A stretch of 64,000 nucleotides of DNA, taken from assembly GCA_036564135.1 (NCBI GenBank), contig DATCLC010000069.1, positions 1,529 through 65,528 on the forward strand. Reading direction: 5' to 3'. Both the position numbers and the translations under genes were made by a program. Below, piece after piece: positions 4,634 through 27,360 of the stretch (position 1 is the first letter of the stretch; every line of letters starts with the position of its first letter). The DNA is from Solirubrobacterales bacterium (GTDB lineage Bacteria; Actinomycetota; Thermoleophilia; Solirubrobacterales; 70-9). The notes below the pieces were generated by a model. It did not search any database and had not been told where the DNA came from. It saw nothing but the letters and a program-made list of their open reading frames with translations.

Positions 4634-5832
4634 TCGCCCCCCTCCGGCACGGTGAAGCTCACGGTCATCCATCCGAAGCCAGCGCCGGGCGGGTAGTAGC
4701 GCGCGAGGGGCGAGGCCTCGGGGCCGTGGGCGTTGGTGAGCGGGATTCGCTCGTACGTGTAGGTGACGCCCTCGGGCCCGGCCTCCACGGTCGGCTCGAG
4801 ATCGCGCCGAGCGAAGTCCCCGGTCACCGCGAGCCGCGAGCGCTCCGGGTCCCTCCAATACTCGACGTAGTCGTGGATCAGCCGGCCGCCGCCGTCCGCG
4901 GTCACCTCGACGATCGGGTCGTAGGCCCCGACGTCGAGGTGGTGCGCGGTCATCTCGAAGCGCACCGACCCGCGCAGCCGCAGGGAAGCGGCACCCGTCA
5001 CCGGGTCGAACCAGCCCTCCGCGAACGCCGCCGGCCCGTAGATGACCGTGTAGGGCAGCGGGACGGAGGGCGGAGGATCGCTGCACGGCGTCGAGAGGTG
5101 CGGCGGCGGGTACGCCACCGGCTCCTCGAGCACGGCGCCGTCCGCCGCGCTCACGCCAGGCCCACCTGCCGAGTGCACGTAGCAGACGAACGACTCGCGG
5201 ATCCGCCAATGGAGCTGCGCCTCGCTCACGTCGACCGCGGTCTCGGGCCGCTCGAGCAACTCTGGCTCCGCCTCGGAGGGCGGGGCGAGCGGGAGCGTGC
5301 CGCGCACCCGCACGCGCCCGAGGCCCCTCGGCAGCCGCCGTACGCGCAGCCTGCGCTGCAGCTCGCGGCGAAGGTAGCCGTCCAGTCGCAGCTTCCCCGA
5401 CGTATCGACCTCGCCGGTGATCGGGTTGAACGGCGCCACCTCATCGACACCGCGCAGGCGGCCGAGCGTGTACTGGGTACCGCGCAGCCTGGCGGTCAGC
5501 AGGGCACGTCCGGCCTGGATCGTCGCCGCGAGCGACTGCAGGCGCACGCTGCGGCGGCGCCTGCCCTTGCGCGCGGTCAGCTTCAGCGCGCCCTTCAGGC
5601 GCACGCGTGCGATCGAGCTCACCTCGCCGCTGCGGATCGGCAGCGTGACTGCGCGGCCGCGGCGCCTCGCCGGCGCCACCGCACGCAGCTTCACGTTCTG
5701 CGCACCCAAGGCGCGCGCCGCGTGCTTGCCGAGGCGGAGCTTTGCCGTGTTCGGCGAGTCCGCGTGCGCGGCGGCACCTCCCAGCAGGAGGGCCGCCACG
5801 ACGGCCGCCAAGAGCCCAGCGAGCAGCCTCAC
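4630..5832 (-). CDS. HtaA-domain-like secreted protein (second copy)
   Basis: C-terminal half has an HtaA-like core (AQLHWRIRESFVCYVHSAGG). Start set to GTG 5832 (GTGA overlap with the ATPase stop), giving a signal-like RLLAGLLAAVVAALLLGGAAAHA. Alternative start at 5871. Confidence 0.65.
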   Translation of the reverse strand: MRLLAGLLAAVVAALLLGGAAAHADSPNTAKLRLGKHAARALGAQNVKLRAVAPARRRGRAVTLPIRSGEVSSIARVRLKGALKLTARKGRRRRSVRLQSLAATIQAGRALLTARLRGTQYTLGRLRGVDEVAPFNPITGEVDTSGKLRLDGYLRRELQRRLRVRRLPRGLGRVRVRGTLPLAPPSEAEPELLERPETAVDVSEAQLHWRIRESFVCYVHSAGGPGVSAADGAVLEEPVAYPPPHLSTPCSDPPPSVPLPYTVIYGPAAFAEGWFDPVTGAASLRLRGSVRFEMTAHHLDVGAYDPIVEVTADGGGRLIHDYVEYWRDPERSRLAVTGDFARRDLEPTVEAGPEGVTYTYERIPLTNAHGPEASPLARYYPPGAGFGWMTVSFTVPEGGE

Positions 5833-6656
5833 CGCAGCTCCCCCTCGAGCTCGCGGGCGGCCCCGAGCCAATCGACGCGCAGCGCCGTGTGCCCGGCCTC
5901 GTCCGCGTCGAGGCGCGCCTCGACCTTCCAGACCTCGCGCAGGCGATCGGGCGCGAGCACCTCCCGCGGCTCGCCCGAGGCGACCGTGCGGCCATCCGAC
6001 ATCACCACCACCTCGTCGGCGAGCGCCGCGGCGAGCGCGAGGTCGTGCACGACCAGCAGCACCGCCAGTCCCTCCTCGGCGAGGTTTCGCAGGAGCCGGG
6101 CGACCGAGACGGTCGCCCCGAGGTCGAGCTGCGACGTGGGCTCGTCGGCCAAGAGCAGGGGCGCTTCCTGCGCGAGCGCGATCGCGATCTGCACGCGCTG
6201 GAGCTCGCCGCCGGAGAGCGTGGTGAGCCGGCGATGCGCGAACCGCGCGGTTCCGGTCCGCTCGAGCGCCCGCTCGACGGCGTCACGGTCGCGGCGGGTG
6301 GCGCGCGCGAGCGGCCGCAGGTGCGGCGAGCGGCCGATCCTGACCGCCTCCGCGACCGTGATCCCCTCGGGCACGCGCGGGCGCTGCGGGACGAACGCCC
6401 GTAGTCGGGCGAGGCGCCTGCCCCGCGTGCGGCGGACGTCGTGGCCCATGCACCGCACCTCGCCGCGCGCCGGGCGCAGGATCCCGGCCGCGGCGCGCGC
6501 GAACGTCGACTTGCCCGCGCCGTTCGGGCCCACCAGCGCGACGAGCTGACCCCGGTCCACGCGCAGGCTCGCGCCGTGGAGGATCGGCGCGCCGCCGAGG
6601 CGGACGTACACGTCGCGCGCGTCGAGCGCGGGCTCGTGTCCGCTCGCCACCGTCAC
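5829..6656 (-). CDS. hmuV: heme/siderophore ABC transporter ATP-binding protein
   Basis: Walker A GPNGAGKST, signature LSGGELQRV, Walker B LLLADEPTSQLD. ORF-track entry 5829..7235 trimmed to GTG 6656 (GTGA overlap with the permease stop). Confidence 0.85.
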   Translation of the reverse strand: MTVASGHEPALDARDVYVRLGGAPILHGASLRVDRGQLVALVGPNGAGKSTFARAAAGILRPARGEVRCMGHDVRRTRGRRLARLRAFVPQRPRVPEGITVAEAVRIGRSPHLRPLARATRRDRDAVERALERTGTARFAHRRLTTLSGGELQRVQIAIALAQEAPLLLADEPTSQLDLGATVSVARLLRNLAEEGLAVLLVVHDLALAAALADEVVVMSDGRTVASGEPREVLAPDRLREVWKVEARLDADEAGHTALRVDWLGAARELEGELR

Positions 6657-7657
6657 GCCGTCCTCCGCAGAAGCCACAGAAACAGCGGGACGCCCAGCAC
6701 GACCATGAACGGCCCGACGGGCAGCACGGTCGGGGCCGCCACGTTGCGGGCCAGCACGTCGCCGGCCGTAAGCAGCGCGGCGCCCGCCAGCGCCGAGGCG
6801 GGGATCACGAAGCTGTGGCTCGAGGTGCCCCCGGCCATGCGGACCAGGTGCGGGACGACCAGGCCGAGGAAGCTGAGCAGCCCGACCAGGGCCGCCGCCG
6901 CGGAGGCGAGCACGGCAGCGCAGATCCCCGCGCCCAGGCGGATCAGCTGCGGACGGCTGCCCAGCGAGGCCGCGACGTCGTCGCCGAGCGCGAGACGATC
7001 GAGCGGCCTGATCAGGACCAGGGCGAGCGCGAGCCCGACGACGAAGTACGGCCAAAACGACTCGAGGTCGATCCAGGCGTTCGGCGTGAGCCCGCCCGCC
7101 ATGAAGAAGACGACCGACTGGACGCGGTCCGGGAACGCCGTCATCAGACCGGTGGTGGCCGCGCCGAACAGGGCGGCGACGGCGATGCCGGCGAGGATCA
7201 CCTGGGTCACCCCGCCGCGGTTGCGCCCGGTCCACGCGATCGCGAAGACCACGGCCGCCGCGACCAAGCCGAACACCAGCGCGCCGACCGGCAGGAGCGC
7301 CACCGAGCCCGGGAAGGCCAAAAGGATAAGCGTGGCGCCGAACCCGGCGCCCGCGGTCACGCCGATCACGTCCGGCGAGGCGAGCGGATTGGCCAGCGCC
7401 CCCTGGAGCACGGCGCCGGCCACGCCCAGGGCCGCGCCCACGGCGACCGCCTCGACCGTGGTCGGCAGCCGGATGTCCATCACGATCTTGCGCTCGGGGC
7501 CATCGGCGAGGTCGCCGAACAGCGCGTCGATCACGGTGGCCAGCGGAATATCGACGGCCCCGATCGCAAGCGAGGCGCCCACGGCCGCAAGCAGCGCGAC
7601 GAGCGCGGCCACGATGACCGCGCTCCGGCGCGCGACTGTGGTGACCGTGAGCGCCAC
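6653..7657 (-). CDS. hmuU: FecCD-family heme/siderophore ABC permease
   Basis: 334 aa, polytopic, with typical FecCD/BtuC-like sequence (GAGICAAVLASAAAALVGLLSFLGLVVPHLVRMAGG). GTG start at 7657. Confidence 0.85.
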   Translation of the reverse strand: MALTVTTVARRSAVIVAALVALLAAVGASLAIGAVDIPLATVIDALFGDLADGPERKIVMDIRLPTTVEAVAVGAALGVAGAVLQGALANPLASPDVIGVTAGAGFGATLILLAFPGSVALLPVGALVFGLVAAAVVFAIAWTGRNRGGVTQVILAGIAVAALFGAATTGLMTAFPDRVQSVVFFMAGGLTPNAWIDLESFWPYFVVGLALALVLIRPLDRLALGDDVAASLGSRPQLIRLGAGICAAVLASAAAALVGLLSFLGLVVPHLVRMAGGTSSHSFVIPASALAGAALLTAGDVLARNVAAPTVLPVGPFMVVLGVPLFLWLLRRTA

Positions 7658-16028: not shown

Positions 16029-16553
16029 CTATGCCTCGACGCTGAGGATCTCGAGCGTCTTCGTTTTGCCCTTCGGTAGCGGGACGCTCACCGTCGCTCC
16101 GGGCGTTGCGCCCAGGAGCGCCTTCCCAACGGGTGAGGCGATGGAGACCGAGCCGGCGGACACCGGCTCGTGCCCTCCCACGAGGACGAGCGTCGTGACC
16201 TCGCCGGAGGAGGCGTCTTTGACTCGCACGCGCGAGCCGATCGTCACGACGTCGCCCTCGACGTCTTCGTCCACGATCCGCGCCCGGGCCAGGATCTCCT
16301 CGAGACGGGCGATCCGGGCCGTGAGGATCGCCTCCTCCTCGCGGATCTGATGGAGGTCGTCGTTCTCCGACCCGGCTCCGTACTCCCGCGCCTCCCGGAG
16401 ACGGGCGGCGACCTCCGTGTCAAGCTCGTGGCGCAGGCGCTCGAGCTCGGCGCGCATCGCGCGCTCCCCGTCGCGGGTAAGCAGGATCGCCCCCGCCGGC
16501 ACGGCGCCTCCGCGGTCGAGCGGCCGAGTGTCGGGAGTGGTGGCCATTATCAC
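16029..16553 (-). CDS. GreA/GreB-family transcription factor (Rnk-like)
   Basis: 174 aa. Coiled-coil N-terminus (MRAELERLRHELD) and a C-terminal GreA/B domain (VSIASPVGKALLGATPGATVSV). Confidence 0.8.
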   Translation of the reverse strand: MIMATTPDTRPLDRGGAVPAGAILLTRDGERAMRAELERLRHELDTEVAARLREAREYGAGSENDDLHQIREEEAILTARIARLEEILARARIVDEDVEGDVVTIGSRVRVKDASSGEVTTLVLVGGHEPVSAGSVSIASPVGKALLGATPGATVSVPLPKGKTKTLEILSVEA

Positions 16554-16803
16554 GATCTTCGTCGCGAACGGGCCGCGCGTGAATGGGTCTCAACACCCAT
16601 CTTCCGCCCGCCTCCTGCCTCCCGTCCTGCGCATCCAACGGTTCCAGCGCGACGTACGCGAGCGCCGCGAGGGCGATCAGCACGATCCCCATGCCGACCC
16701 CGGGGGGCGCGCCGAGCGCGAGCAGCGCCGCACCGACGGCCGTGAGCGCCGCCGGCAGCACATAGCGCGCGGGTTTCGAGGGATCGGACATCACAAACAC
16801 CAT
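16420..16803 (-). CDS. possible small membrane protein (conflicts with the GreA-like gene)
   Basis: The first ~55 codons have very high GC3 and two hydrophobic segments (YVLPAALTAVGAALLALG, GIVLIALAALAYVAL). GC3 then drops, and the frame runs 134 nt into the GreA-like CDS. Confidence 0.3.
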   Translation of the reverse strand: MVFVMSDPSKPARYVLPAALTAVGAALLALGAPPGVGMGIVLIALAALAYVALEPLDAQDGRQEAGGRWVLRPIHARPVRDEDRDNGHHSRHSAARPRRRRAGGGDPAYPRRGARDARRARAPAPRA

Positions 16804-16869: not shown

Positions 16870-18243
<1,374 letters not shown>

Positions 18244-18448
18244 TCAGCCAGCCCTCCCTGAGCGGGGGTCACGGTCGGTCGAGGTCGGCGTCGCCGCAGA
18301 CCACGGCTGGCGCGCGTACTCGCAGCGAGCGCGGCGCTCCAGATGTCCGGCCTCGAATAGAGCACCCTGGCAACGTACGAACACCGCGCCCAGGGGCGAA
18401 TGGGTGTTGACACCCAATTGTCGACCGCCCCGCGCCGACATAATCCGG

Positions 18449-19429
18449 GTGATCCAGGTCAAGCGCCGTTCCGTAGAAGGCTCGCTGTTCCAGCGCGCGG
18501 TCCTCGCGACCGCGGTCGTGATGGTGCTCGCTTTCATCCTGCTCACCGTCACGCCGGTCGAGGTGAGCGCGCCGATCCGCCTGGCGGAGGCGGCGATCCT
18601 CGCGGTCGGGATCATCACGCTCTTCGTCCTCAACCTGCTGCTGTTGCGCCACGCGCTGACGCCGCTCACCCGAATGGCTGAGCGGATGAAGGAGATCGAC
18701 CTCCGCGCCCCCAACCAGAACCTGAGCGCGGAGATGCCTCCCTACTCCGAGCTACTCGCCTTCGGGCAGGCGTTCGACGAGATGGTCGCCCGGCTCGCCG
18801 AGGAGCGCCGCGCCGGCGCCCGGGCGGCGCTGCTCGCGCAGGAGACCGAGCGCGCCCGGATCGCGCGGTCGCTTCACGACGAGGCCGGGCAAACGCTCAC
18901 CGCGGTCGCCCTGCAGCTCGAGCGCGCGGCCGCCGAGGGGCCGCCTGAACAGCGCGAGCGCCTCGGCGCGCTCGCGTTCCAGCTCCAGGACACGCTCGAC
19001 GAGATCCGCCGGATCGTTCGCGAGCTACGCCCCGAGGCGCTGGAGGATCTCGGGCTCGTCAACGCCCTGATCGCCCTGACGCGACGCCTCGACCAGCAGA
19101 GCGAGGTGCGCTTCACGCACGACTTCGCCCCCGACCTGCCCTCCCTCTCCCCGGAGACCGAGCTCGTCCTCTACCGCGTCGCGCAGGAGGCCCTCACGAA
19201 CGTCCTCCGCCACTCCCGGGCGCGGCGGTGCATGGTCTCGCTGCGTCCCCACGATGGCGGCGTGCGGCTCGTCGTGAGCGACGACGGCGTCGGCTTCAAC
19301 CCGCATGCCGAGCTCGACACCACGGGGCTCGAGGGCATGCGCGAGCGGGCCATGCTCGCCGGCGGCGCGCTGCGCATCGAATCCGAGCCGGGCACGGGCA
19401 CTACGGTCACGCTCGAGGTGCCTCGATGA
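18449..19429 (+). CDS. sensor histidine kinase (HisKA_3 / NarX-LiaS type)
   Basis: Two TM segments plus a HAMP-like region. H-box SLHDEAGQTLTAV, N-box LYRVAQEALTNVLRHS, G1 DDGVGF. ORF-track entry 17987..19429 overlaps gdhA, so the start is set to GTG 18449 (uncertain). Confidence 0.8.
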   Translation: MIQVKRRSVEGSLFQRAVLATAVVMVLAFILLTVTPVEVSAPIRLAEAAILAVGIITLFVLNLLLLRHALTPLTRMAERMKEIDLRAPNQNLSAEMPPYSELLAFGQAFDEMVARLAEERRAGARAALLAQETERARIARSLHDEAGQTLTAVALQLERAAAEGPPEQRERLGALAFQLQDTLDEIRRIVRELRPEALEDLGLVNALIALTRRLDQQSEVRFTHDFAPDLPSLSPETELVLYRVAQEALTNVLRHSRARRCMVSLRPHDGGVRLVVSDDGVGFNPHAELDTTGLEGMRERAMLAGGALRIESEPGTGTTVTLEVPR

Positions 19430-20085
19430 CCGTCCCGCTCAAGACCAAGATCCTGCTCGCCGACGACCACCAGATGGTCCGCGGCGGCTTGAAGGTCGTG
19501 CTCGACGCCGAGCCCGACCTCGAGGTCGTGGCCGAAGCGGGCGACGGCGCGGAGGCGCTGCGCATCGGCATCGAGGAGGACATCGACCTGGCCGTGCTCG
19601 ACGTGTCGATGCCGAGGCTCACCGGCCTGCAGGTGGCGCGGGAACTCCATCGCCACCGCCCGGAGCTGCGCACCCTGATCCTCTCGATGCACGAGAACGA
19701 GCAGTACTTCTTCGAGGCGCTCAAGGCGGGCGCCTCCGGGTACGTCCTCAAGTCCGCCGCGAACCGCGACCTCATCGACGCCGTGCGTGCGGCCATGCGC
19801 GGCGAGCCGTTCATCTACCCCGCCGCGGCCTCCGCCCTGGTCCGCGACTACCTCGAGCGCGCGGCCCGCGGTGAGGAGACGCCCAGCGACCCGCTGACGC
19901 CGCGCGAGCTCGAGGTCACGAAGCTGATCGCCGAGGGCTTGACCAGTGAGGAGATCGCCGAGACCCTAGTGATCAGCCGCAAGACCGTCGAGCGACACCG
20001 GGCCAACATCCTCGAGAAACTCGGCATGCGCAACCGGGTCGAGCTCACGCGCTACGCGATTCGCCGCGGCCTGGTCGAACCCTGA
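19426..20085 (+). CDS. NarL/LuxR-family response regulator
   Basis: ATGA overlap with the kinase stop. Receiver ILLADDHQMVRGGL...DLAVLDVSMP; LuxR HTH LTPRELEVTKLIAEGLTSEEIAETLVISRKTVERHRANILEKLG. Confidence 0.9.
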   Translation: MTVPLKTKILLADDHQMVRGGLKVVLDAEPDLEVVAEAGDGAEALRIGIEEDIDLAVLDVSMPRLTGLQVARELHRHRPELRTLILSMHENEQYFFEALKAGASGYVLKSAANRDLIDAVRAAMRGEPFIYPAAASALVRDYLERAARGEETPSDPLTPRELEVTKLIAEGLTSEEIAETLVISRKTVERHRANILEKLGMRNRVELTRYAIRRGLVEP

Positions 20086-20086
20086 G

Positions 20087-20117
20087 CCCCGCAGCGGTTT
20101 AGCTGTCCGCAGCGGGG
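20087..20117 (+). terminator. hairpin after the response-regulator gene
   Basis: CCCCGCAGCGG-tttagctgt-CCGCAGCGGGG (11-bp stem with one mismatch). No T-tract. Confidence 0.35.
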
Positions 20118-20203
20118 TAGGCGCGGGGGGTCAAGGAAGAACGGTGCGGTCACACCGGTGGGCCCGGGGGACGCGCCGCACCAGTCCCACGGAGGAGACG
20201 CGC

Positions 20204-20353
20204 ATGAAGAAGTTGGCGATGCACGCAGTCTTGGACCGCGTGGCGGGCGAGCGGCCCGGAGCGCCGCGCGCCGCCGCGGTCGCCGCTTCGGTCGGCCTCG
20301 CCGCCGCCGCGGTCGTCTACAAAGCGCTGCGCCACGAATCCAGCGAGGAATAG
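20204..20353 (+). CDS. small hydrophobic-tail protein (49 aa)
   Basis: ATG 20204 is preceded by GGAGGAG at -13 to -7. MKKLAMHAVLDRVAG...AAAVAASVGLAAAAVVYKAL. Confidence 0.4.
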   Translation: MKKLAMHAVLDRVAGERPGAPRAAAVAASVGLAAAAVVYKALRHESSEE

Positions 20354-20440
20354 GCCCGCCCAAGCAGGAGGTTTTCGCCGCACCCGCGGGGGTAGAGCGA
20401 GGGCACGGGAAGGAACCCGAGACGAGAGAGGAGGGCCGGG

Positions 20441-20980
20441 ATGGCCCAAACGCAGAAGAAGTCTTCAGGCGGACGCAGCTCCTCGAGCCGCACGCGCTCG
20501 AAGAGCACGACGGCCAAGTCGAGGAACGGGAGCGCTCGCCAGAGCTCGGCGACGCGGTCGTCCCCGGACGCGAACGGGCAGAGCAGGCTCGAGTCCGTTG
20601 CCGACACCGTGACGAGCGGCGCGAAGAGCGCGGCGGAGACGGTCGGCAACGCGAGCTCCAAGGCCAAGACCGGCCTGCTCGCGGGCGGCGCTGCCGCGGT
20701 CGGGCTCGCGGCCACCGCGATCGCGACCCGCAAGGCCCGCAGCAAGCCGAAGGTGCTCGGCGTCGAGCTTCCGCGCCGCAAGGGCCACGGCATCTCCTCG
20801 TGGACGAAGGGGATCTCGCTGCCGAAGCGCGGCGGTATGCGCAAGCAGACGCAGCGCGCCGCCACCAAGGTCACCGGAGCCGCGGACGCGGCCGACCGCA
20901 TCGCGCTTCGGCTGAGCAGCGTCGCGCGCGGCGTCCGGCAGGTGAGCGAGACGGCGAACGACGCCGCCAAGAAGGCCTAA
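20441..20980 (+). CDS. basic Ser/Lys/Arg-rich single-pass membrane protein (gvp-flanking paralogue 1)
   Basis: 179 aa. Disordered basic N-terminus, Gly/Ala-rich TM LLAGGAAAVGLAATAIA, C-terminal helix. The 21-nt RBS/start block AGGAGGGCCGGGATGGCCCAA (20429-20449) is identical to 26809-26829. Confidence 0.65.
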   Translation: MAQTQKKSSGGRSSSSRTRSKSTTAKSRNGSARQSSATRSSPDANGQSRLESVADTVTSGAKSAAETVGNASSKAKTGLLAGGAAAVGLAATAIATRKARSKPKVLGVELPRRKGHGISSWTKGISLPKRGGMRKQTQRAATKVTGAADAADRIALRLSSVARGVRQVSETANDAAKKA

Positions 20981-20999
20981 GCCGAAAGGGCTTCGCCCC

Positions 21000-21458
21000 G
21001 TGGCGCAGCGCAAGCCGGTCGACGCCCAGCCCGCCGCCGAGGCGAAGCGGGCGCTCGCTCAGTGGCGCCTCGCGCTGCGCTACGCGGCGGCGGCCGCGCG
21101 ACCCGGCGCCGAAGCCGCGGCGCGAGTCGTGCGTGCCACCGGCGCTGACCTCGCGAGCCGCGCGGTCGAACGCCTGCGGGCCCTAGGCGAGGAGCGGGCT
21201 GATCAGGGCCAAGCGGCGGAGTCGCCCGACGAGGGCGCGGCGGAGGACGAGCGCGAGCCCGACGGCCCGGCGGCCGAGGAAGACGGCGCGCCGCCCGCCG
21301 ACGAGGAGCCAGGCGCTGAGGCCGACGGCACCGACGAGGAGCCCGACGCCGACGAGCGCGACGGGGGCGCCGACCCCCTGCGCGCCGGCTTCGAGCACGC
21401 CTACAGCGACGAGGTCGAGAACTACGAGCACCGAGACGCGTACGCGAACACGCGCTGA
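21000..21458 (+). CDS. hypothetical acidic protein
   Basis: 152 aa. Ala/Arg-rich helical N-terminus and a strongly acidic tail (EDEREPDGPAAEEDG...DEEPDADERDGG). High GC3. Sits directly upstream of gvpA. Confidence 0.5.
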   Translation: MAQRKPVDAQPAAEAKRALAQWRLALRYAAAAARPGAEAAARVVRATGADLASRAVERLRALGEERADQGQAAESPDEGAAEDEREPDGPAAEEDGAPPADEEPGAEADGTDEEPDADERDGGADPLRAGFEHAYSDEVENYEHRDAYANTR

Positions 21459-21494
21459 CGCGCGCTGACCCGGCAAGCCAGGAAAGGAATCCAG

Positions 21495-21941
21495 ATGGCC
21501 ACGGCTATGCAGTACGGAAGCGGGACCCGTCCCTACCGCGGCGGGAGCGGCTACGTAGCGCGCTCCTCCTCGAGCGGGCTCTATGACGTCCTCGAGCTGA
21601 TCCTCGACAAGGGGCTCGTGATCGACGTGTTCGTGCGCGTCTCGCTGATCGGAATCGAGATCCTCACCGTGGACGCGCGCATCGTGATCGCGAGCGTCGA
21701 CACCTACCTGCGTTTCGCGGAGGCGGTCAACCGCCTCGACCTGATGGCGACCGAGACCCAGGGCCTGCCCGAGATGATGGACGGCCTCACCGAGAGCGGC
21801 GCCTCCAGCAAGACCAAGGGCGCGATCACCGGCGCGCGCGAGGCGCTCTTCGGTGACGACGAGGAGGTAGAGGGCGACAAGGAGGCCCAGGGCTCGCGCA
21901 AGCGCAGCTCGAGCACGCGACGGAGCAGGTCGAGCTCCTGA
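21495..21941 (+). CDS. gvpA: gas vesicle structural protein, actinomycete GvpA type (GvpA/J family)
   Basis: Core [50 protein letters not shown], followed by a long hydrophilic C-terminal extension as in streptomycete GvpA. Confidence 0.9.
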
Positions 21942-21955
21942 GCCCGGGAGGCGCG

Positions 21956-22717
21956 GTGGCAAGCGACGGCGTTCCCCAATACGTCTACGGCGTCGTGCCG
22001 GCTGACGGGCGCGGCCGGGCGCGGGCGCCCGGGATCGGCGGCGAGGGGGTGCGCGTGATCCGGGCCGGCCGGGTGGGCGCGCTCGCGAGCCCCGTGCCCG
22101 ACGCCGACGGCGAACTCCCGGCGGGCCGCGAGGAACTGCGCGCCCACGCCCAGGTGCTCGAGGCGGCGCTCGCCGAGTTCGCGGCCGTCCTGCCGATGCG
22201 CTTCGGCATCGTGATGCCGAGCGACGCGGCGGTGCGCGACGAGTTGCTGGGGCCCCACAGCGCCCAGCTCGAGGCCCAGCTCGACGAGCTCGCGGGCAAG
22301 TTCGAGATGGGCCTGAAGGCGCTGTACGACGAGGACGCGATCCTGCGCGAGATCGTCACGGAGAACCGGGAGGCGCGCGCACTGCGCGCGGCGATCGCGG
22401 CCGCGCCGGCCGACGCCACCTACCCGCAGCGGATCCGCCTCGGCGAGCTGATCGCCGCCGGGCTCGACGAGCGGCGGCTCGTAGACGAGCGCGCGATCGC
22501 CGAACGCCTGGAGCGGTTCGCGATCGCCGTCGACCTGCGCCCGCCGATCCACGAGCGCATGGCGCTGAACGCCGCCTTCCTGCTGGACCGCGAGCGCTTG
22601 GGGCGCTTCGACGAGGAGCTCGAGCTGCTCGCCGCCGAGAGCCACCCGCGCATCGGCTTCCGGCTCACCGGCCCCCTCCCCCCGCACAGCTTCGTCGAAC
22701 TTTCGGTGGAGCGCTGA
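21956..22717 (+). CDS. gvpF: gas vesicle protein GvpF/GvpL family
   Basis: 253 aa. N-terminal YVYGVV motif and family-typical layout; ends PLPPHSFV. Confidence 0.85.
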   Translation: MASDGVPQYVYGVVPADGRGRARAPGIGGEGVRVIRAGRVGALASPVPDADGELPAGREELRAHAQVLEAALAEFAAVLPMRFGIVMPSDAAVRDELLGPHSAQLEAQLDELAGKFEMGLKALYDEDAILREIVTENREARALRAAIAAAPADATYPQRIRLGELIAAGLDERRLVDERAIAERLERFAIAVDLRPPIHERMALNAAFLLDRERLGRFDEELELLAAESHPRIGFRLTGPLPPHSFVELSVER

Positions 22718-22718
22718 G

Positions 22719-23024
22719 ATGGGTCTCTTCAAGGAGCTCGCGCTGCTCCCGCTCGCGCCGCTGCGCGGCACCGTCTGGGTGGCCGAGCAGCTCCGCGACG
22801 AGGCCGACCGCCGCCTCTACGACGAGGAGAGCATCAAGCGGGAACTGCTCCAGCTCGAGCTCGACCACGAGGCTGGGCTCGTGGGCGACGCCGAGCGCGA
22901 GCGGCTCGAGCGCGATCTGTTCGAGCGCCTCGCGGTGGCCCGCGCCCGCGCGGTGGAGGAGGCGGAGCTGGCCGCCTATCCGCCCGTTGAACCCGACCCG
23001 GAAGGGGTGAGCGAACGTGGCTGA
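22719..23024 (+). CDS. gvpG: gas vesicle protein GvpG
   Basis: 101 aa. MGLFKELALLPLAPLRGTVWVAEQLRDEA... is typical of GvpG. Confidence 0.85.
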   Translation: MGLFKELALLPLAPLRGTVWVAEQLRDEADRRLYDEESIKRELLQLELDHEAGLVGDAERERLERDLFERLAVARARAVEEAELAAYPPVEPDPEGVSERG

Positions 23025-23346
23025 GCGCAAACCGAGCTCCAAGTCGCGCAGCGGCTCCTCGTCGCGGCGCGGCGGGGGCTCCAAGAGCAACCGCGGCGCC
23101 GCCGAGATCGCGCGTCACGCGGCGCGCGAGCTGCAGGGCCTGATCGGCCGCCCGGTCGAAGCCGTCACCGGCATCGAGCGCGACGGCAAGGAATGGACCG
23201 TCACGGTGGAGGTGGTTGAACTCGAGCGGATCCCGAACACGACCGACGTGCTGGGCGTCTACGAGGTGACGCTCGACGCCGACGGCGAGCTCATCGGCAC
23301 GCAGCGCACGCACCGCTTCTATCGCTCTGAGGCGGGTGAGGTCTAG
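23017..23346 (+). CDS. gvpO: gas vesicle protein GvpO
   Basis: 109 aa. Basic N-terminus, then GRPVEAVTGIERDGKEWTVTVEVVELERIPNTTDVLGVYEV. Confidence 0.85.
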   Translation: MAERKPSSKSRSGSSSRRGGGSKSNRGAAEIARHAARELQGLIGRPVEAVTGIERDGKEWTVTVEVVELERIPNTTDVLGVYEVTLDADGELIGTQRTHRFYRSEAGEV

Positions 23347-23825
23347 TGGCCGAGCAGCGCTCCGAGTACGAGCTCTACGACCGCCGCCAGCGGCCGCCGG
23401 CGGCCGTCCAGTCCGCGGGCGGCCCAGCGAACCTCGCCGACATCCTCGAGCGGGTGCTCGACAAGGGCATCGTGATCGCGGGCGACATCCAGATCAACCT
23501 GCTCGACATCGAGCTGCTCACGATCAAGCTCCGGCTGCTGGTCGCCTCGGTCGAGCGGGCGCAGGAGATGGGGATCAACTGGTGGGAGTCGGACCCCTCC
23601 CTGTCGCGCGACGCGCGGCGGCTCGAGCGGGAGAACGAGGACCTGCGCGAGCGCCTCGAGCGGCTCGAGCGGATCGCTGGACTGCCCGAGCCCGCCCCCG
23701 GCGAGGAGATCGTCTTCGAGGAACATCGCGAGGAGGAGGTCCGAGCCGGTGGCGAGCGGGAAGTCACCGAGTCGCACCATCGCGAGGTTCGCGAGCGCGA
23801 CGAGCGGAACGAGAAGGGGCGATGA
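23346..23825 (+). CDS. gvpJ: gas vesicle protein GvpJ (GvpA/J family)
   Basis: Core NLADILERVLDKGIVIAGDIQINLLDIELLTIKLRLLVASVERAQEMG. GTG start shares its first base with the gvpO stop. Confidence 0.9.
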   Translation: MAEQRSEYELYDRRQRPPAAVQSAGGPANLADILERVLDKGIVIAGDIQINLLDIELLTIKLRLLVASVERAQEMGINWWESDPSLSRDARRLERENEDLRERLERLERIAGLPEPAPGEEIVFEEHREEEVRAGGEREVTESHHREVRERDERNEKGR

Positions 23826-24871
23826 GCACGGAGCGCGAGGAGCTCGAGCGCCTGCGCACGGCGCTCTCCGCGTTCGGTATGGAGCGCGCCGACGAGCTCC
23901 TCGCGTCTGCGCGCGACGAGGCTCTAGAGCGGGCGCGCTTGATCCTCGTCACCGAGATGACGAGGGCCCTGCTCGACGGCGCCGGCGCGCGGCTGGGGTC
24001 GGGCCAACGGGCGCGCGACGGCCGGCGCCGCTCCCCCTCCCCCGCGCCCTCACCCCCGCCGGCCGACGCGTCCGATACCGCGCTCTACGTGTACGGCGTC
24101 GGGTCCAGCGAAGCCGAGGAGCTCGACGGCGCTGTCCGCGAGGGGCTCGGGGTCGCGAGCGCGCCGCCGTTCACGCTGCGCGAGGGCGAGCTGGCGGCGA
24201 TCGCCAGCACGGTCCCGCTCGCCGAATTCGACGAGGGCCGGCTGCGCGAGAACCTGAACGACGTCGAATGGCTCGAGCGCGTGGCGCGCGCCCACGAGGA
24301 AGTGCTCGAGCGGGCGCTGCGGGCGGCGACCGTCGTGCCCCTGCGGTTGTGCACGATGTACCGCGACGCGCAGCACGTGCGCGCGATGCTGGCGCGCGAG
24401 GAGCCGGTCTTCCGCGAGGCGCTCGCCCGCCTGCGCGGCAAGACGGAATGGGGCGTAAAGATGATCGCCGAGCCCGGCGCGCTTGAGCGCGCGCTGAACG
24501 GGGCCGAGCACGAGCGCCTGGAGGACGTGCCGACCGGGGTCGCGTACCTGCGGGAGCGCGGCAGACAGGCTCGCGCCCGCGAGGATCTCGACGAGCTCGC
24601 GGCGCGCTTGGCGGCAGACGTCCACGACGAGCTCGCCGCCCGCGCTGAGGAGGCGCTGCTCAACCCCCTCCAGAACCCCGAGGTGAGCGGCCATGAGGGC
24701 GACATGCTGTTGAACGGCGCCTACCTCGTCGCCGACGCGGAGCTCCCGGCGTTCCGCCAGCAGTGCGAGCGGCTCACAGGAGCGTTCGCGCCGCGCGGGG
24801 TGGTGGTCGAGCTGACCGGCCCCTGGCCCCCGTACAACTTCGTGCGCAGCACCCTGGAGACGTCGGCGTGA
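23822..24871 (+). CDS. gvpL: gas vesicle protein GvpL/GvpF family (long form)
   Basis: ORF-track entry 23336..24871 trimmed to ATG 23822 (ATGA overlap). ALYVYGV motif; ends GPWPPYNFV. Confidence 0.85.
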   Translation: MSTEREELERLRTALSAFGMERADELLASARDEALERARLILVTEMTRALLDGAGARLGSGQRARDGRRRSPSPAPSPPPADASDTALYVYGVGSSEAEELDGAVREGLGVASAPPFTLREGELAAIASTVPLAEFDEGRLRENLNDVEWLERVARAHEEVLERALRAATVVPLRLCTMYRDAQHVRAMLAREEPVFREALARLRGKTEWGVKMIAEPGALERALNGAEHERLEDVPTGVAYLRERGRQARAREDLDELAARLAADVHDELAARAEEALLNPLQNPEVSGHEGDMLLNGAYLVADAELPAFRQQCERLTGAFAPRGVVVELTGPWPPYNFVRSTLETSA

Positions 24872-25212
24872 CCGCGGAGCGGGACGCGATCGACCGCAGC
24901 CGAAGGGCGGCCGCCGCTCGCCGCGAGCGCACGCGCGCCGCTTACGACGCTCGCCGGGCCGCCGACCGCCGGCGGCACGACGCGAGCGTCAGGCGCGCGC
25001 GGCTCGCGCGCGAGGTTTCTCTCGTCGACCTCGTAGATCGCCTCCTCGACGGCGGCGTGGTCATCCACGGCGACATCACGATCGCCGTCGCGGACGTCGA
25101 CCTGCTCTACGTGGGCCTGCGGGCGCTGGTCTCCTCGGTCGAGAACATGGAGCGCGAGCTCGGCGCTGGGCTCTCCGCCAAGGGCCCGGCGCTCGCGGCG
25201 ACGCCGAGGTAG
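24868..25212 (+). CDS. gvpS: small GvpA/J/M/S-family gas vesicle protein
   Basis: GTGA overlap with the gvpL stop. Core SLVDLVDRLLDGGVVIHGDITIAVADVDLLYVGLRALVSSVE. Confidence 0.8.
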   Translation: MTAERDAIDRSRRAAAARRERTRAAYDARRAADRRRHDASVRRARLAREVSLVDLVDRLLDGGVVIHGDITIAVADVDLLYVGLRALVSSVENMERELGAGLSAKGPALAATPR

Positions 25213-25214
25213 CC

Positions 25215-25883
25215 GTGCTCTACGTGTACGCGATCACCGATCCAGGCGCCTCCACCGAGGCGCCGGGCATCGGCGGCGCCCGGGTGACCGCCGTGCGCGA
25301 GGGGGATCTCCAGGCGCTCGTCAGCGCGCACGAACGGCTCGAGCCGGCGACCGGGGTCGATCGGCTGTGGGAGCACGAGGCCGTCGTCGAGGGCGCCGGG
25401 GCAGGCGGCGCGGGGGTGCTGCCGCTGCGCCTGGACAGCGCGCTCGCGGGCGAGGACGAGGTGCGGGCGCTGCTGCGCGAGCGCGCGGATGAGTTCGGGA
25501 CCGTCCTGCGCCGGGTGCGGGGCGCGGCCGAACTGAGCGTGCGCGTGGGCCTCGCCGTCGCCGAGGAACCGGCGCCGGTCGCGCCCGGGACCGGCGGAGC
25601 GGGCACCGCGTACATGCTCGGGCGCCTCGAGCGGGCGCGGCGAGCCGAGGATCTGGTCCGCGCGGTGCACGAGCCGCTCGCCGAGCTCGCGCGCGAGCAC
25701 GCGCGCCTGGGGCCGACGCTCTCCGACCGGCGCGGCCAGTTCCGGCTCGCCTATTTGGTCGAGCGCGGCGCGGTGGAACCCTTCAGGGCCCGCGTGGAGG
25801 AGCTCGCGGAGTCGCAGCCGGAGCTGCAGCTGACCTGCACGGGGCCGTGGCCGCCCTACAGCTTCGTGGGGAGTGCCGCGTGA
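25215..25883 (+). CDS. third GvpF/GvpL-family protein
   Basis: 222 aa. LYVYAI N-terminus; ends GPWPPYSFV, like the other two family members. Confidence 0.8.
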   Translation: MLYVYAITDPGASTEAPGIGGARVTAVREGDLQALVSAHERLEPATGVDRLWEHEAVVEGAGAGGAGVLPLRLDSALAGEDEVRALLRERADEFGTVLRRVRGAAELSVRVGLAVAEEPAPVAPGTGGAGTAYMLGRLERARRAEDLVRAVHEPLAELAREHARLGPTLSDRRGQFRLAYLVERGAVEPFRARVEELAESQPELQLTCTGPWPPYSFVGSAA

Positions 25884-26236
25884 GCCCTGCCGCCGAGCGC
25901 GACCGCCTGCTCGCGGGCCACGGCGACCTCGACCTCTTCGGGCGCGAGCTCGCGCGCCTGGACTCCGCGCTGCGCGGCCGCTTGAACGCCGACCGCGAAA
26001 GCCTCGAGAAGGGCCTCGCGCAGCTCGTGCTCACCCTCGTCGAGGTCATCCGCCAGCTGCTTGAGCGCCAGGCTCTGCGGCGCGTCGAGGGCGGCTCACT
26101 CTCGGCGGCCGAGGTGGAGCGGCTGGGCGAGACATTCCTGCTGCTCGCCGAGCGCATGGACGAGCTCAAGGAGGCATTCGGCCTGGAGGACGAGGACCTG
26201 AATCTGGACCTGGGGCCCCTGGGGAAGCTGCTGTGA
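25880..26236 (+). CDS. gvpK: gas vesicle protein GvpK
   Basis: GTGA overlap with the upstream stop. Core LEKGLAQLVLTLVEVIRQLLERQALRRVEGGSLSAAEVERLGETF. Confidence 0.85.
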   Translation: MSPAAERDRLLAGHGDLDLFGRELARLDSALRGRLNADRESLEKGLAQLVLTLVEVIRQLLERQALRRVEGGSLSAAEVERLGETFLLLAERMDELKEAFGLEDEDLNLDLGPLGKLL

Positions 26237-26261
26237 GGAAAGCCACGGAAGGAGGACGCGT

Positions 26262-26495
26262 ATGAACGGCGAGGAGTTGCGGGCGCAGTACTTCGACGTC
26301 CTGCTCGACCGGATCACCGAGACGCGCTACCCGAGCAAGGAGCTGCTCGACCGCGCCGAGAACCTCGCGTACACGCGCGAGCAGGCGGAGCGGCTCGTGA
26401 CGTACCTGATCGCGACCGTGCAGGGCGTGCGCTACCCGAGCCACCAGCTCATGGACCGCGTCGAGCGGATCCTCTTCGGGATACCCGGGCGCTAG
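26262..26495 (+). CDS. 77-aa protein with internal duplication (gvp-associated, unknown function)
   Basis: GGAAGGAGGA SD upstream of the ATG. Two ~33-aa repeats, each ending in RYPS-x2-L-[LM]-DR-[AV]-E (RYPSKELLDRAE / RYPSHQLMDRVE). Confidence 0.6.
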   Translation: MNGEELRAQYFDVLLDRITETRYPSKELLDRAENLAYTREQAERLVTYLIATVQGVRYPSHQLMDRVERILFGIPGR

Positions 26496-26820
26496 CCCGG
26501 GCAGCGTGGGCTCGCTCGCGCGCGGCGCGATGCGCAGCGCGCCCGCGGCGCTTGGCGCGCCGCACCTGCCGCGCGACCCGTGAGCGGGCGCGGCGCAGGC
26601 GTCGCTTCGCGCGCCGGTCCCGGTCCGCGCTCTGGCGCCGCACCCTTCGCCGCAGCTCGGCGGAGTGCTCGGCGAGCTCGGCGTTGCGCCGCGCGGCGCG
26701 CATTCGGTGAGCTTGTGGAGACGCCATGGCTGCGGGGGCGTTTTCACCCCGGTTGCAGGTCGTTTACCCGGAATTTCGCGCGGGTAGCCGGAGCGCACCG
26801 CGAACCGAAGGAGGGCCGGG

Positions 26821-27360
26821 ATGGCCCAAGCCAAGACCAGCAAGTCATCGTCAAGGAAGACGGGCGGCGCGAAGCGCACGCAGGCCAAGTCGCGCAGCGG
26901 CGCGAAGTCGGCGTCGGCCAAGTCGCGCGGCGCGAAAGCGGCGTCGAAGAGCTCGAACGGCAAGCGCGCGACGTCCGCGAAGCCGCGCAAGCCCGCGACG
27001 CCGAAGGCACCGGCGCCCGAGGAGCTCGGGGGCGCCGCGGCGCTCGCCGCGGCGCGTCAGGCCGCGGCGGAGGGCACGAAGGCGGCCGGTAAGGCCGTCG
27101 CCGCAGCCGCGAAGCGCGCCCGGACGCCACTCGCGATCGCGGGCGGCGCTGTCGCCGGCGTTGCCGGCGGGCTCGCGCTGCGGCGCCGCGGGAACCACTC
27201 GAAGCTGAGCGCCCGGCTGCCCAAGGAGCTGCCGCTGCCGCTGCGCGACGGCAAGCTCGACCCTGACGCGATCGCGAGGTTCGGCACGCGCGTCGAGGGG
27301 TTCGGGCGCCAGCTCACCGCGGTCTCGCACGCCCTGCGCGCCCAGCAGCGCAAGCGCTAG
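26821..27360 (+). CDS. basic Ser/Lys/Ala-rich single-pass membrane protein (gvp-flanking paralogue 2)
   Basis: 179 aa, the same length and architecture as 20441..20980: basic disordered N-terminus, TM LAIAGGAVAGVAGGLAL, C-terminal helix. Identical 21-nt RBS/start block at 26809-26829. Confidence 0.65.
   Translation: MAQAKTSKSSSRKTGGAKRTQAKSRSGAKSASAKSRGAKAASKSSNGKRATSAKPRKPATPKAPAPEELGGAAALAAARQAAAEGTKAAGKAVAAAAKRARTPLAIAGGAVAGVAGGLALRRRGNHSKLSARLPKELPLPLRDGKLDPDAIARFGTRVEGFGRQLTAVSHALRAQQRKR

Follow-up and report, generated by a model that had tools for sequence, protein, structure and literature searches.

Gas-vesicle gene (gvp) clusters are common in soil actinobacteria, yet what they do there is unclear, and knowledge of their accessory proteins is incomplete. 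The cluster analysed here lies in a 64,000-nucleotide (nt) stretch of a Solirubrobacterales contig (DATCLC010000069.1; 72 % G+C), hereafter the window; all window coordinates are those of the whole stretch. Here the gvp genes are enclosed by two plus-strand genes encoding 179 amino acids each, A (20441–20980) and B (26821–27360), and a third small gene, s49 (20204–20353, plus strand), precedes A. The outer scaffold of gas vesicles is provided by GvpC, which relies on amphipathic helices; A and B resemble it in being encoded with gvp genes, in lying outside the GvpA-type shell fold and in their predicted amphipathic helices. They have neither 33-residue repeats nor detectable homology to GvpC, and they differ from it in a hydrophobic Gly/Ala helix, in a long polybasic disordered tail and in their occurrence without gvp genes. 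YtxH, a member of the Bacillus SigB regulon, and GvpP and GvpT, non-essential proteins of gvp clusters, offer another comparison. Proteins of the YtxH-like type (PF12732) and of the Bacillus GvpT/GvpP type (NF041669) are likewise small and combine a Gly/Ala-rich hydrophobic helix with a helical remainder, but this helix is N-terminal in them, whereas it is central in A and B. Moreover, among 14 A-family members a single one matched the PF12732 hidden Markov model (HMM), at E 0.14, and the B family gave no match, so that neither family can be assigned to it, and the NF041669 HMM matched neither A nor B. A further analogy is provided by ElaB, YqjD and YgaM (DUF883), which are stationary-phase, membrane-anchored, ribosome-binding proteins of Escherichia coli. 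Like these, A and B are small, appear to be controlled by a stress sigma factor and would combine one hydrophobic anchor with a charged cytoplasmic part; however, the anchor of the ElaB type is C-terminal instead of central, A and B lack a Pfam match, and ElaB-type proteins are not known to be linked to gvp genes.

Among actinobacteria, Streptomyces has the gvp order gvpO-A-F-G-Y-Z-J-L-S, in which GvpY and GvpZ are actinomycete-specific. Compared by description only, these two proteins resemble A and B in being lineage-specific, without a named function and tied to actinobacterial gvp clusters; their genes lie between gvpG and gvpJ, a place occupied by gvpO in the window, whereas A and B stand outside the core. 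According to one report, salt stress induces the gvp genes of Streptomyces (PMC5839063). In S. coelicolor, a paper on ArgR lists the gvp genes as SCO6499–SCO6507, and SCO6509, annotated as a “hydrophobic protein”, is a SigB-dependent monocistronic gene. Likened to A, B and s49 by its gene number near gvp and its description only, SCO6509 is a lead. More generally, SigB/SigF regulon genes of Actinobacteria and Firmicutes share with s49, A and B both a GTTT-N14-17-GGGTA promoter architecture and the encoding of small hydrophobic or basic proteins of no known function; one clade of the loci described below (the L006 type) departs from this upstream, where a sigma-factor gene is adjacent.

Judged from its sequence, our locus represents a type of gvp locus that is framed by three conserved, unnamed proteins whose genes have stress-type promoters. 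Our literature search found no description of gas-vesicle loci of Solirubrobacterales or Thermoleophilia or of the A/B family. A fixed Solirubrobacterales-type locus architecture is now defined, with three unnamed small hydrophobic proteins around the core, predicted general-stress promoters and a shared initiation block, and it bears on whether the gas vesicles of soil actinobacteria are a stress organelle and on what aids their formation. It also matters for the mining of gvp clusters for acoustic reporters, where conserved flanking genes are easily omitted from cloned clusters. Public gene calls miss or truncate the A and B genes: A is given as a 123-amino-acid short form starting at V57 (P0002), while the conservation of MAQTQ... 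among homologues supports the 179-amino-acid form as the probable one; B of the window did not turn up in the protein search, and at locus L047 B is uncalled and an antisense open reading frame (ORF) was called instead.

Stress-type promoter motifs and the frame around gvp clusters

The motif GTTT-N13-17-GGGTA matches the window exactly three times, against 0.08 matches expected, and all three matches are on the plus strand just upstream of s49, A and B. They read GTTTA-N14-GGGTA before s49 (20097–20119; kept in L005), GTTTT-N15-GGGTA before A (20371–20394) and GTTTACCC-N13-GGGTA before B (26762–26786). For mycobacterial SigF and for the SigB-type sigma factors of Bacillus and Streptomyces, GTTT...GGGTA has been published as the consensus (PMC4694148, PMC8346170), and each of the three sites has the −35 element GTTT and the −10 element GGGTA 13–17 nt apart and shortly upstream of its gene. 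Across B orthologues of gvp-linked loci (n = 10), GTTTACCC, unchanged in all ten, and GGGTA are invariant or nearly so. From these matches we infer that a sigma factor of the SigB/SigF type acts on the s49, A and B promoters. Both these promoters and s49 as a third partner had been missed in the earlier note. Family members away from gvp genes have promoter variants such as GGTT or GATT ... GGG(T/A)A. A sigma-70 promoter scan of the locus found none, intrinsic terminator-like sites were at background level, and a motif search of the window found no sigma or anti-sigma factor genes.

The genes following the A promoter form a tightly packed array, namely A, X, gvpA-F-G-O-J-L-S-F-K and orf77, whose neighbours overlap or lie 0–36 nt apart. 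Since the array contains no internal GTTT-N13-17-GGGTA motif and its genes overlap or are spaced by at most 36 nt, we predict that the array is transcribed as a whole from the A promoter and B on its own; A to orf77 would thus constitute one operon, and B a separate and probably monocistronic unit. The organism was found in phyllosphere, sludge, compost and fertilizer metagenomes, and four phyllosphere metatranscriptomes yielded contigs that match A, several gvp genes including gvpA, orf77 and B at 100 % identity. Transcripts of these genes are thus present, with DNA carry-over possible; the contigs are assembled and carry no strand information, and their ends are too coarse for placing transcription starts. 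The orf77–B gap is without contigs in three of the four runs, which fits a separate B unit.

Bracketing of the gvp genes by A and B, as described in the earlier note, is true of the window and of every comparable cluster fetched, and the check proposed there, whether homologues flank gvp clusters elsewhere, came out positive. A genome scan with the A profile returned ten loci; two of these (L006, L008) show the order A-type gene, a 328-amino-acid protein combining an SRPBCC domain with an acidic tail, the same gvp gene order, orf77 and a B-type gene. With orf77 as the query, a metagenome scan yielded 26 loci, and a same-strand B-type gene follows orf77 in all 16 of them that have at least ~700 nt downstream; an A-type gene is present in 3/3 of the loci that reach well upstream of gvpA. 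Moreover, three long contigs found via family members (L042, L043, L047) show, in this order, sigma-factor and A-type genes, the gene of the SRPBCC protein and gvp genes; L042 and L047 extend to orf77, L043 ends within the cluster, and the B-type gene of L047 is present though missed by the gene caller (16190–16651). In total, an A-type gene lies upstream of gvpA in 9/9 loci reaching far enough (window, L006, L008, L021, L031, L032, L042, L043 and L047), and a B-type gene follows orf77 in 20/20 loci with at least ~700 nt downstream, while the A proteins of framed clusters are only 37–43 % identical. s49 is linked to the clusters in both clades, at differing positions: in the window type it precedes A, with homologues by A in L001, L005, L013 and L021, versus convergent directly after the last gvp-cluster gene, orf77, in the L006 type (L006, L008, L030–L032, L042, L047).

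We favour, with moderate confidence, the reading that s49, A and B make up a general-stress-type module which encloses the gvp operon, with anchored accessory proteins co-expressed with gas vesicles. SigB/SigF general-stress-type promoters would drive the module, inside which the gvp operon lies in this lineage. A would be the promoter-proximal gene of the packed A-to-orf77 array (13 genes by our count), and B a separate unit with its own promoter. The shared initiation block, with its potential hairpin, could give A and B the same translational behaviour. Their hydrophobic helix would anchor the proteins to a hydrophobic surface, either the cytoplasmic membrane or a nascent gas vesicle, and the polybasic tails would be in the cytoplasm. 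A and B may thus be stress-induced, be co-expressed with gas vesicles and modulate them, instead of being shell components; we infer this function as stress-induced accessory proteins from the predicted promoters, the gene order and the protein features.

The A and B proteins and their initiation block

Both 179-amino-acid reading frames are present in the window, both start with MAQ, and both show a G+C content at third codon positions (GC3) of 0.93–0.94, a strong coding signal, because of which we regard them as real coding sequences. Their equal length, which the earlier note had pointed out, is due to chance, given that orthologues range from ~120 to 230 amino acids; we reject it as a meaningful feature. 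The protein layout described there was borne out for A and B. In both, the N-terminal half is Ser/Lys/Arg/Ala-rich and disordered-looking, evolves fast and contains large insertions and deletions among homologues; it is followed by a Gly/Ala-rich hydrophobic stretch (residues 77–95 in A, 102–120 in B), by basic residues and by a predicted C-terminal helix whose hydrophobic moment is high (133–178 in A, 148–178 in B). The isoelectric point of both proteins is ~12.

Less can be kept of the description of A and B as single-pass membrane proteins. The hydrophobic stretch is present in both; its maximum mean Kyte-Doolittle hydropathy over 19 residues is 1.62–1.66, at the threshold for a membrane helix, and the net charge on its two sides is +10 and +16 in A and +22 and +10 in B, strongly positive on both. 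A bitopic protein would be expected to have one hydrophobic helix of at least ~19 residues above the threshold and positive charge on one side only. A classical single-pass layout is therefore doubtful; it would place a highly basic domain outside the cell. We consider it no less likely that the proteins are anchored in a monotopic or interfacial manner, or that they bind some other hydrophobic surface, for example that of a nascent vesicle.

BLASTP gave no alignment between A and B. A Smith-Waterman comparison with whole-sequence shuffles reached z 6.7, which we discounted as biased by composition, and profiles were compared instead. With hhalign, the A-family and B-family alignments matched at 97.9 % (E 6e-13, 94 columns) over the helix preceding the hydrophobic stretch, the hydrophobic stretch itself and the C-terminal helix. 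Since the sequences are low in complexity, reversed and zone-shuffled controls were run: the score was 79 for the real alignments, 13.6 for the reversed B alignment and at most 24 in 20 zone-shuffled versions. Furthermore, the A-family and B-family HMMs each match members of the other family in the fetched loci, a search with B recovers A-like proteins (P0024–P0026), and one subgroup (P0014, P0027) is matched from both sides. The motifs KAKTPLxAGGAAxAG, LPxR and FGxQ are common to both proteins and occur in the same order. The duplicated gene pair proposed in the earlier note thus holds up in HMM-HMM comparison with controls, although pairwise BLASTP is blank, and A and B are, by their profiles, ancient and strongly diverged paralogues.

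In a search of 1.84 billion representatives, the joint A+B profile recovered 534 clusters (50 % identity) at E ≤ 1e-3, and the named sources are nearly all Solirubrobacterales genomes assembled from metagenomes. Both proteins carry the family signature of an MAQ/MAE start, a polybasic Ser/Lys/Arg-rich disordered N-terminal part, KAKTPLxAGGAAxAG, a basic cluster with LPxR, and a C-terminal helix with FGxQ/RVSxVA. Neither single sequences nor whole alignments gave anything significant against Pfam, NCBIfam or PDB sequences. That the two do not correspond to any named Gvp agrees with our scans, in which A and B had no match at E ≤ 1 to the HMMs of GvpA/J/M/S, F/L, G, K, O, C, N or T/P; the same scans match the neighbouring genes clearly (GvpA, G, O, K, F/L, J/M).

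The 21-nt block AGGAGGGCCGGGATGGCCCAA, reported as identical at the starts of the two genes, is indeed exact at 20429–20449 (A, plus strand) and 26809–26829 (B, plus strand). It combines a strong Shine-Dalgarno (SD) sequence, AGGAGG, with the spacer GCCGGG and the start ATG GCC CAA; its make-up in both genes is a strong SD, a fixed 6-nt spacer and ATG-GCC-CAR. It is the longest exact direct repeat of the window, where the next longest has 19 nt; no further match exists in the window even with 3 mismatches, and two copies were found in 0 of 100 shuffles. Orthologues elsewhere carry closely similar blocks. For A these are AGGAGGGCCAGGATGGCCCAA in L001 (20/21 matches to the window block) and AGGAGGGCCAGGATGGCCCAG in L005 (19/21), and for B GGGAGGGCCGGGATGGCCCAA in L020 (20/21), AGGAGGGCCCGGATGGCCCAA in L018 and L024 (20/21) and AGGAGGGCCCGGATGGCCCAG in L028 (19/21); B of L005, which has no promoter of its own, has AGGGGAACCGTCATGGCTCAG (14/21). 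More distant family members keep the SD and the MAQ/MAE start, and not the spacer. To account for the exact identity of the A and B blocks, no more than a single additional change, A to G at −3 of gene A, is required. On these comparisons, the block is most simply described as an old initiation region under constraint in both paralogue lines and not as a product of recent conversion.

The block contains a potential hairpin with a 5-bp G/C stem, GGGCC-NGGAU-GGCCC, whose variable position is in the loop. It appears in the minimum-free-energy folds of 8/8 leaders and reaches −10.6 kcal/mol with z −2.0 in its 31-nt context. We hypothesize that it covers the last SD bases and the G of AUG. Rfam covariance models gave no match at E ≤ 1 between 19900 and 27700.

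Accounts of the frame

Several observations weigh against reading the trio as accessory proteins of gas vesicles. L005 (NCBI GCA_002919115.1, PKER01000295.1) is syntenic with the window, with a glutamate dehydrogenase, a response regulator and an Rrf2 protein that are 92 %, 97 % and 95 % identical; here A and B are 28 nt apart (5616–6657) with no gvp genes between them, and the promoter motif is found before s49 and A and is absent before B, which directly follows A. s49-A-B without gvp genes also occurs in L001–L004, and other family members lie distant from any gvp gene (L007, L009–L014, L044–L046, L048, L049). The A/B pair is thus not specific to gvp clusters. Because members lie far from any gvp gene, a role apart from gas vesicles is certain for part of the A/B family, and it is possible for A and B themselves. 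In the L006-type clade, A has no GTTT..GGGTA motif and is preceded by a sigma-factor gene. The stem of the potential hairpin is invariant where present and gives no covariation support, and longer contexts fold no better than shuffles. The AlphaFold2 models of A and B are of low confidence, including the hydrophobic stretch (predicted local distance difference test ~52). In the metatranscriptome contigs, which carry no strand information, DNA carry-over is possible.

On one alternative view the linkage is historical only, with s49-A-B as a stress module without a gas-vesicle role between whose A and B the gvp operon landed or grew, the layout being inherited since. The trio is intact without gvp genes in L001–L005, and members away from gvp genes stand beside stress genes (often encoding DUF3618, DUF4235, BrkB, Usp, DUF892 and SpoIIE) under the same promoter type. 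However, the frame is held in 9/9 and 20/20 clusters of two clades with A at 37–43 % identity, and it persists despite the relocation of s49 and the change of the A promoter; linkage outlasting such rearrangement usually reflects selection. The A–B spacers of gvp-less loci can also be aligned to the region of the B promoter in loci with gvp genes: L001 retains GGGTAGCC, and the spacer of L005 matches part of this region in the window, which suggests that the entire gvp array was deleted there. These apparent B-promoter remnants suggest that the gvp array was lost secondarily in the gvp-less loci, over an originally gvp-free state, and we regard a purely historical linkage as possible but rather unlikely. 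Another view, on which A and B genuinely belong to the structure or assembly machinery of gas vesicles and might stand in for GvpC/GvpN or tether vesicles to the membrane, would account for the strict synteny with gvp and for gvpC and gvpN being undetected in the cluster, and the conserved amphipathic C-terminal and hydrophobic helices could bind shell or membrane. It is doubtful to us, as A and B persist where gvp genes are absent, show no sequence relation to any Gvp family and have fast-evolving N-terminal halves with large insertions and deletions, and as B is a predicted separately transcribed unit. Both views differ from the reading we favour, a stress-type module with accessory proteins, mainly in the importance of A and B for the vesicles. 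A bolder version, on which we would likewise put little weight, is that s49, A and B are missing parts of the actinobacterial gas-vesicle system which, upon stress induction, bind or nucleate vesicles at a hydrophobic surface, for instance as a membrane tether or polybasic coat, and replace GvpC/GvpN; the conserved SD/AUG hairpin would then be a switch of translation, shared by the genes, through which their dosage is adjusted to that of the shell genes.

Two further accounts concern the likeness of A and B itself. A recent short gene conversion in this genome would explain why the 21-nt identity is exact, including the G at −3 where the A orthologues of L001 and L005 have A. A conversion tract would be expected to lack the identity in orthologues elsewhere; as A and B orthologues match at 19–20 of 21 positions and those of B in L020, L018 and L024 already have GGGAGGGCCGGGATGGCCCAA or AGGAGGGCCCGGATGGCCCAA, at most one nucleotide in A is left to explain. 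The flanks moreover have no extended identity that could have supported recombination. We therefore consider recent conversion very improbable, reject it as the main cause of the identity and abandon this half of the proposal of “shared translational control or recent gene conversion” made in the earlier note, while shared control stands as plausible only. That A and B are unrelated low-complexity ORFs of similar composition could be argued from the blank BLASTP result and from the richness of both in Ala, Ser, Lys, Arg and Gly. It is scarcely credible given that the profile-profile comparison scores much higher than its reversed and zone-shuffled controls, that three motifs recur in the same order, that both families are conserved over many genomes and that the GC3 of both genes is that of coding sequence.

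Gene content of the locus and side observations

s49 encodes 49 amino acids with a C-terminal Gly/Ala-rich hydrophobic helix. All genes of the array are on the plus strand. A, its first gene, and B are both covered by transcript contigs. A is followed by X (21000–21458), an acidic protein of 152 amino acids and a derivative, without the SRPBCC domain, of the protein that trails A in other clusters. The core then comprises gvpA (21495–21941; PF00741, E 1.9e-11), gvpF (21956–22717; NCBIfam GvpF/GvpL matches), gvpG (22719–23024; PF05120, E 3.5e-20), gvpO (23017–23346; PF05800, E 4e-26) and a gvpJ-like gene of the GvpA/J/M family (23346–23825; NCBIfam-level matches to J/M). The next gene (23822–24871), whose start overlaps the gvpJ stop in ATGA, is called gvpL-like (GvpF/L family) from its position and its similarity to the GvpL_GvpF genes that Pfam annotates in L042 and L047. 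It is succeeded by a gvpS-like gene of the small GvpA/J/M family (24868–25212), a second gvpF/L-family gene (25215–25883) and gvpK (25847–26236, probable start GTG at 25880; PF05121, E 1.6e-32). Pfam and NCBIfam scans gave no match to gvpC or gvpN in the cluster. The last gene of this gvp cluster type is the conserved orf77 (26262–26495; 77 amino acids), which has no family assignment.

Within the second gvpF/L-family gene, contigs of three metatranscriptome runs show a joint that skips 480 nt (25412–25893); its shorter side is backed by only 21 nt, and a chimeric or foreign contig is possible. The relatives of X in other clusters are proteins of 300–330 amino acids which follow A and consist of an N-terminal helix region, an SRPBCC/Polyketide_cyc2 domain and an acidic tail; the domain is absent from X in the window and in L021. 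orf77 is 70–87 % identical across 22 metagenome loci, contains an internal repeat (RYPSKELLDRAE and RYPSHQLMDRVE) and has its own GTTT..GGGTA motif in L025, L026, L029 and L033. Between orf77 and B, which are 325 nt apart, the DNA (26496–26760) is very rich in G+C and has several imperfect inverted repeats (for example 26513–26547), and no canonical terminator, Rfam match or convincing ORF was found in it. An antisense ORF there (26449–26727) was rejected as a gene, with a GC3 of 0.77 compared with 0.88–0.99 for real genes, and it is not the s49 homologue found at this place elsewhere.

The second clade has a sigma-factor gene immediately preceding the A-type gene (L006 9011–9853, L042 7294–8880, L043 7290–8873, L047 8062–8820). 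These sigma factors have regions 2 and 4 and up to 528 amino acids, and the 280-amino-acid L006 copy alone has a weak, sub-threshold zf-HC2 zinc-finger match. The A leader of this clade carries a conserved ...ccgttctct...cgttcgaaa..ttttccaac in place of GTTT..GGGTA. In L019 (5276–6892), two tandem B-type genes follow orf77, each with its own GTTT..GGGTA motif, which points to a further duplication in that lineage. Finally, directly upstream of s49 (17987–20085) lie genes for a histidine kinase (HisKA_3) and a response regulator of the GerE/LuxR type, in an arrangement kept in L005, and this pair is a possible local regulator of the module.

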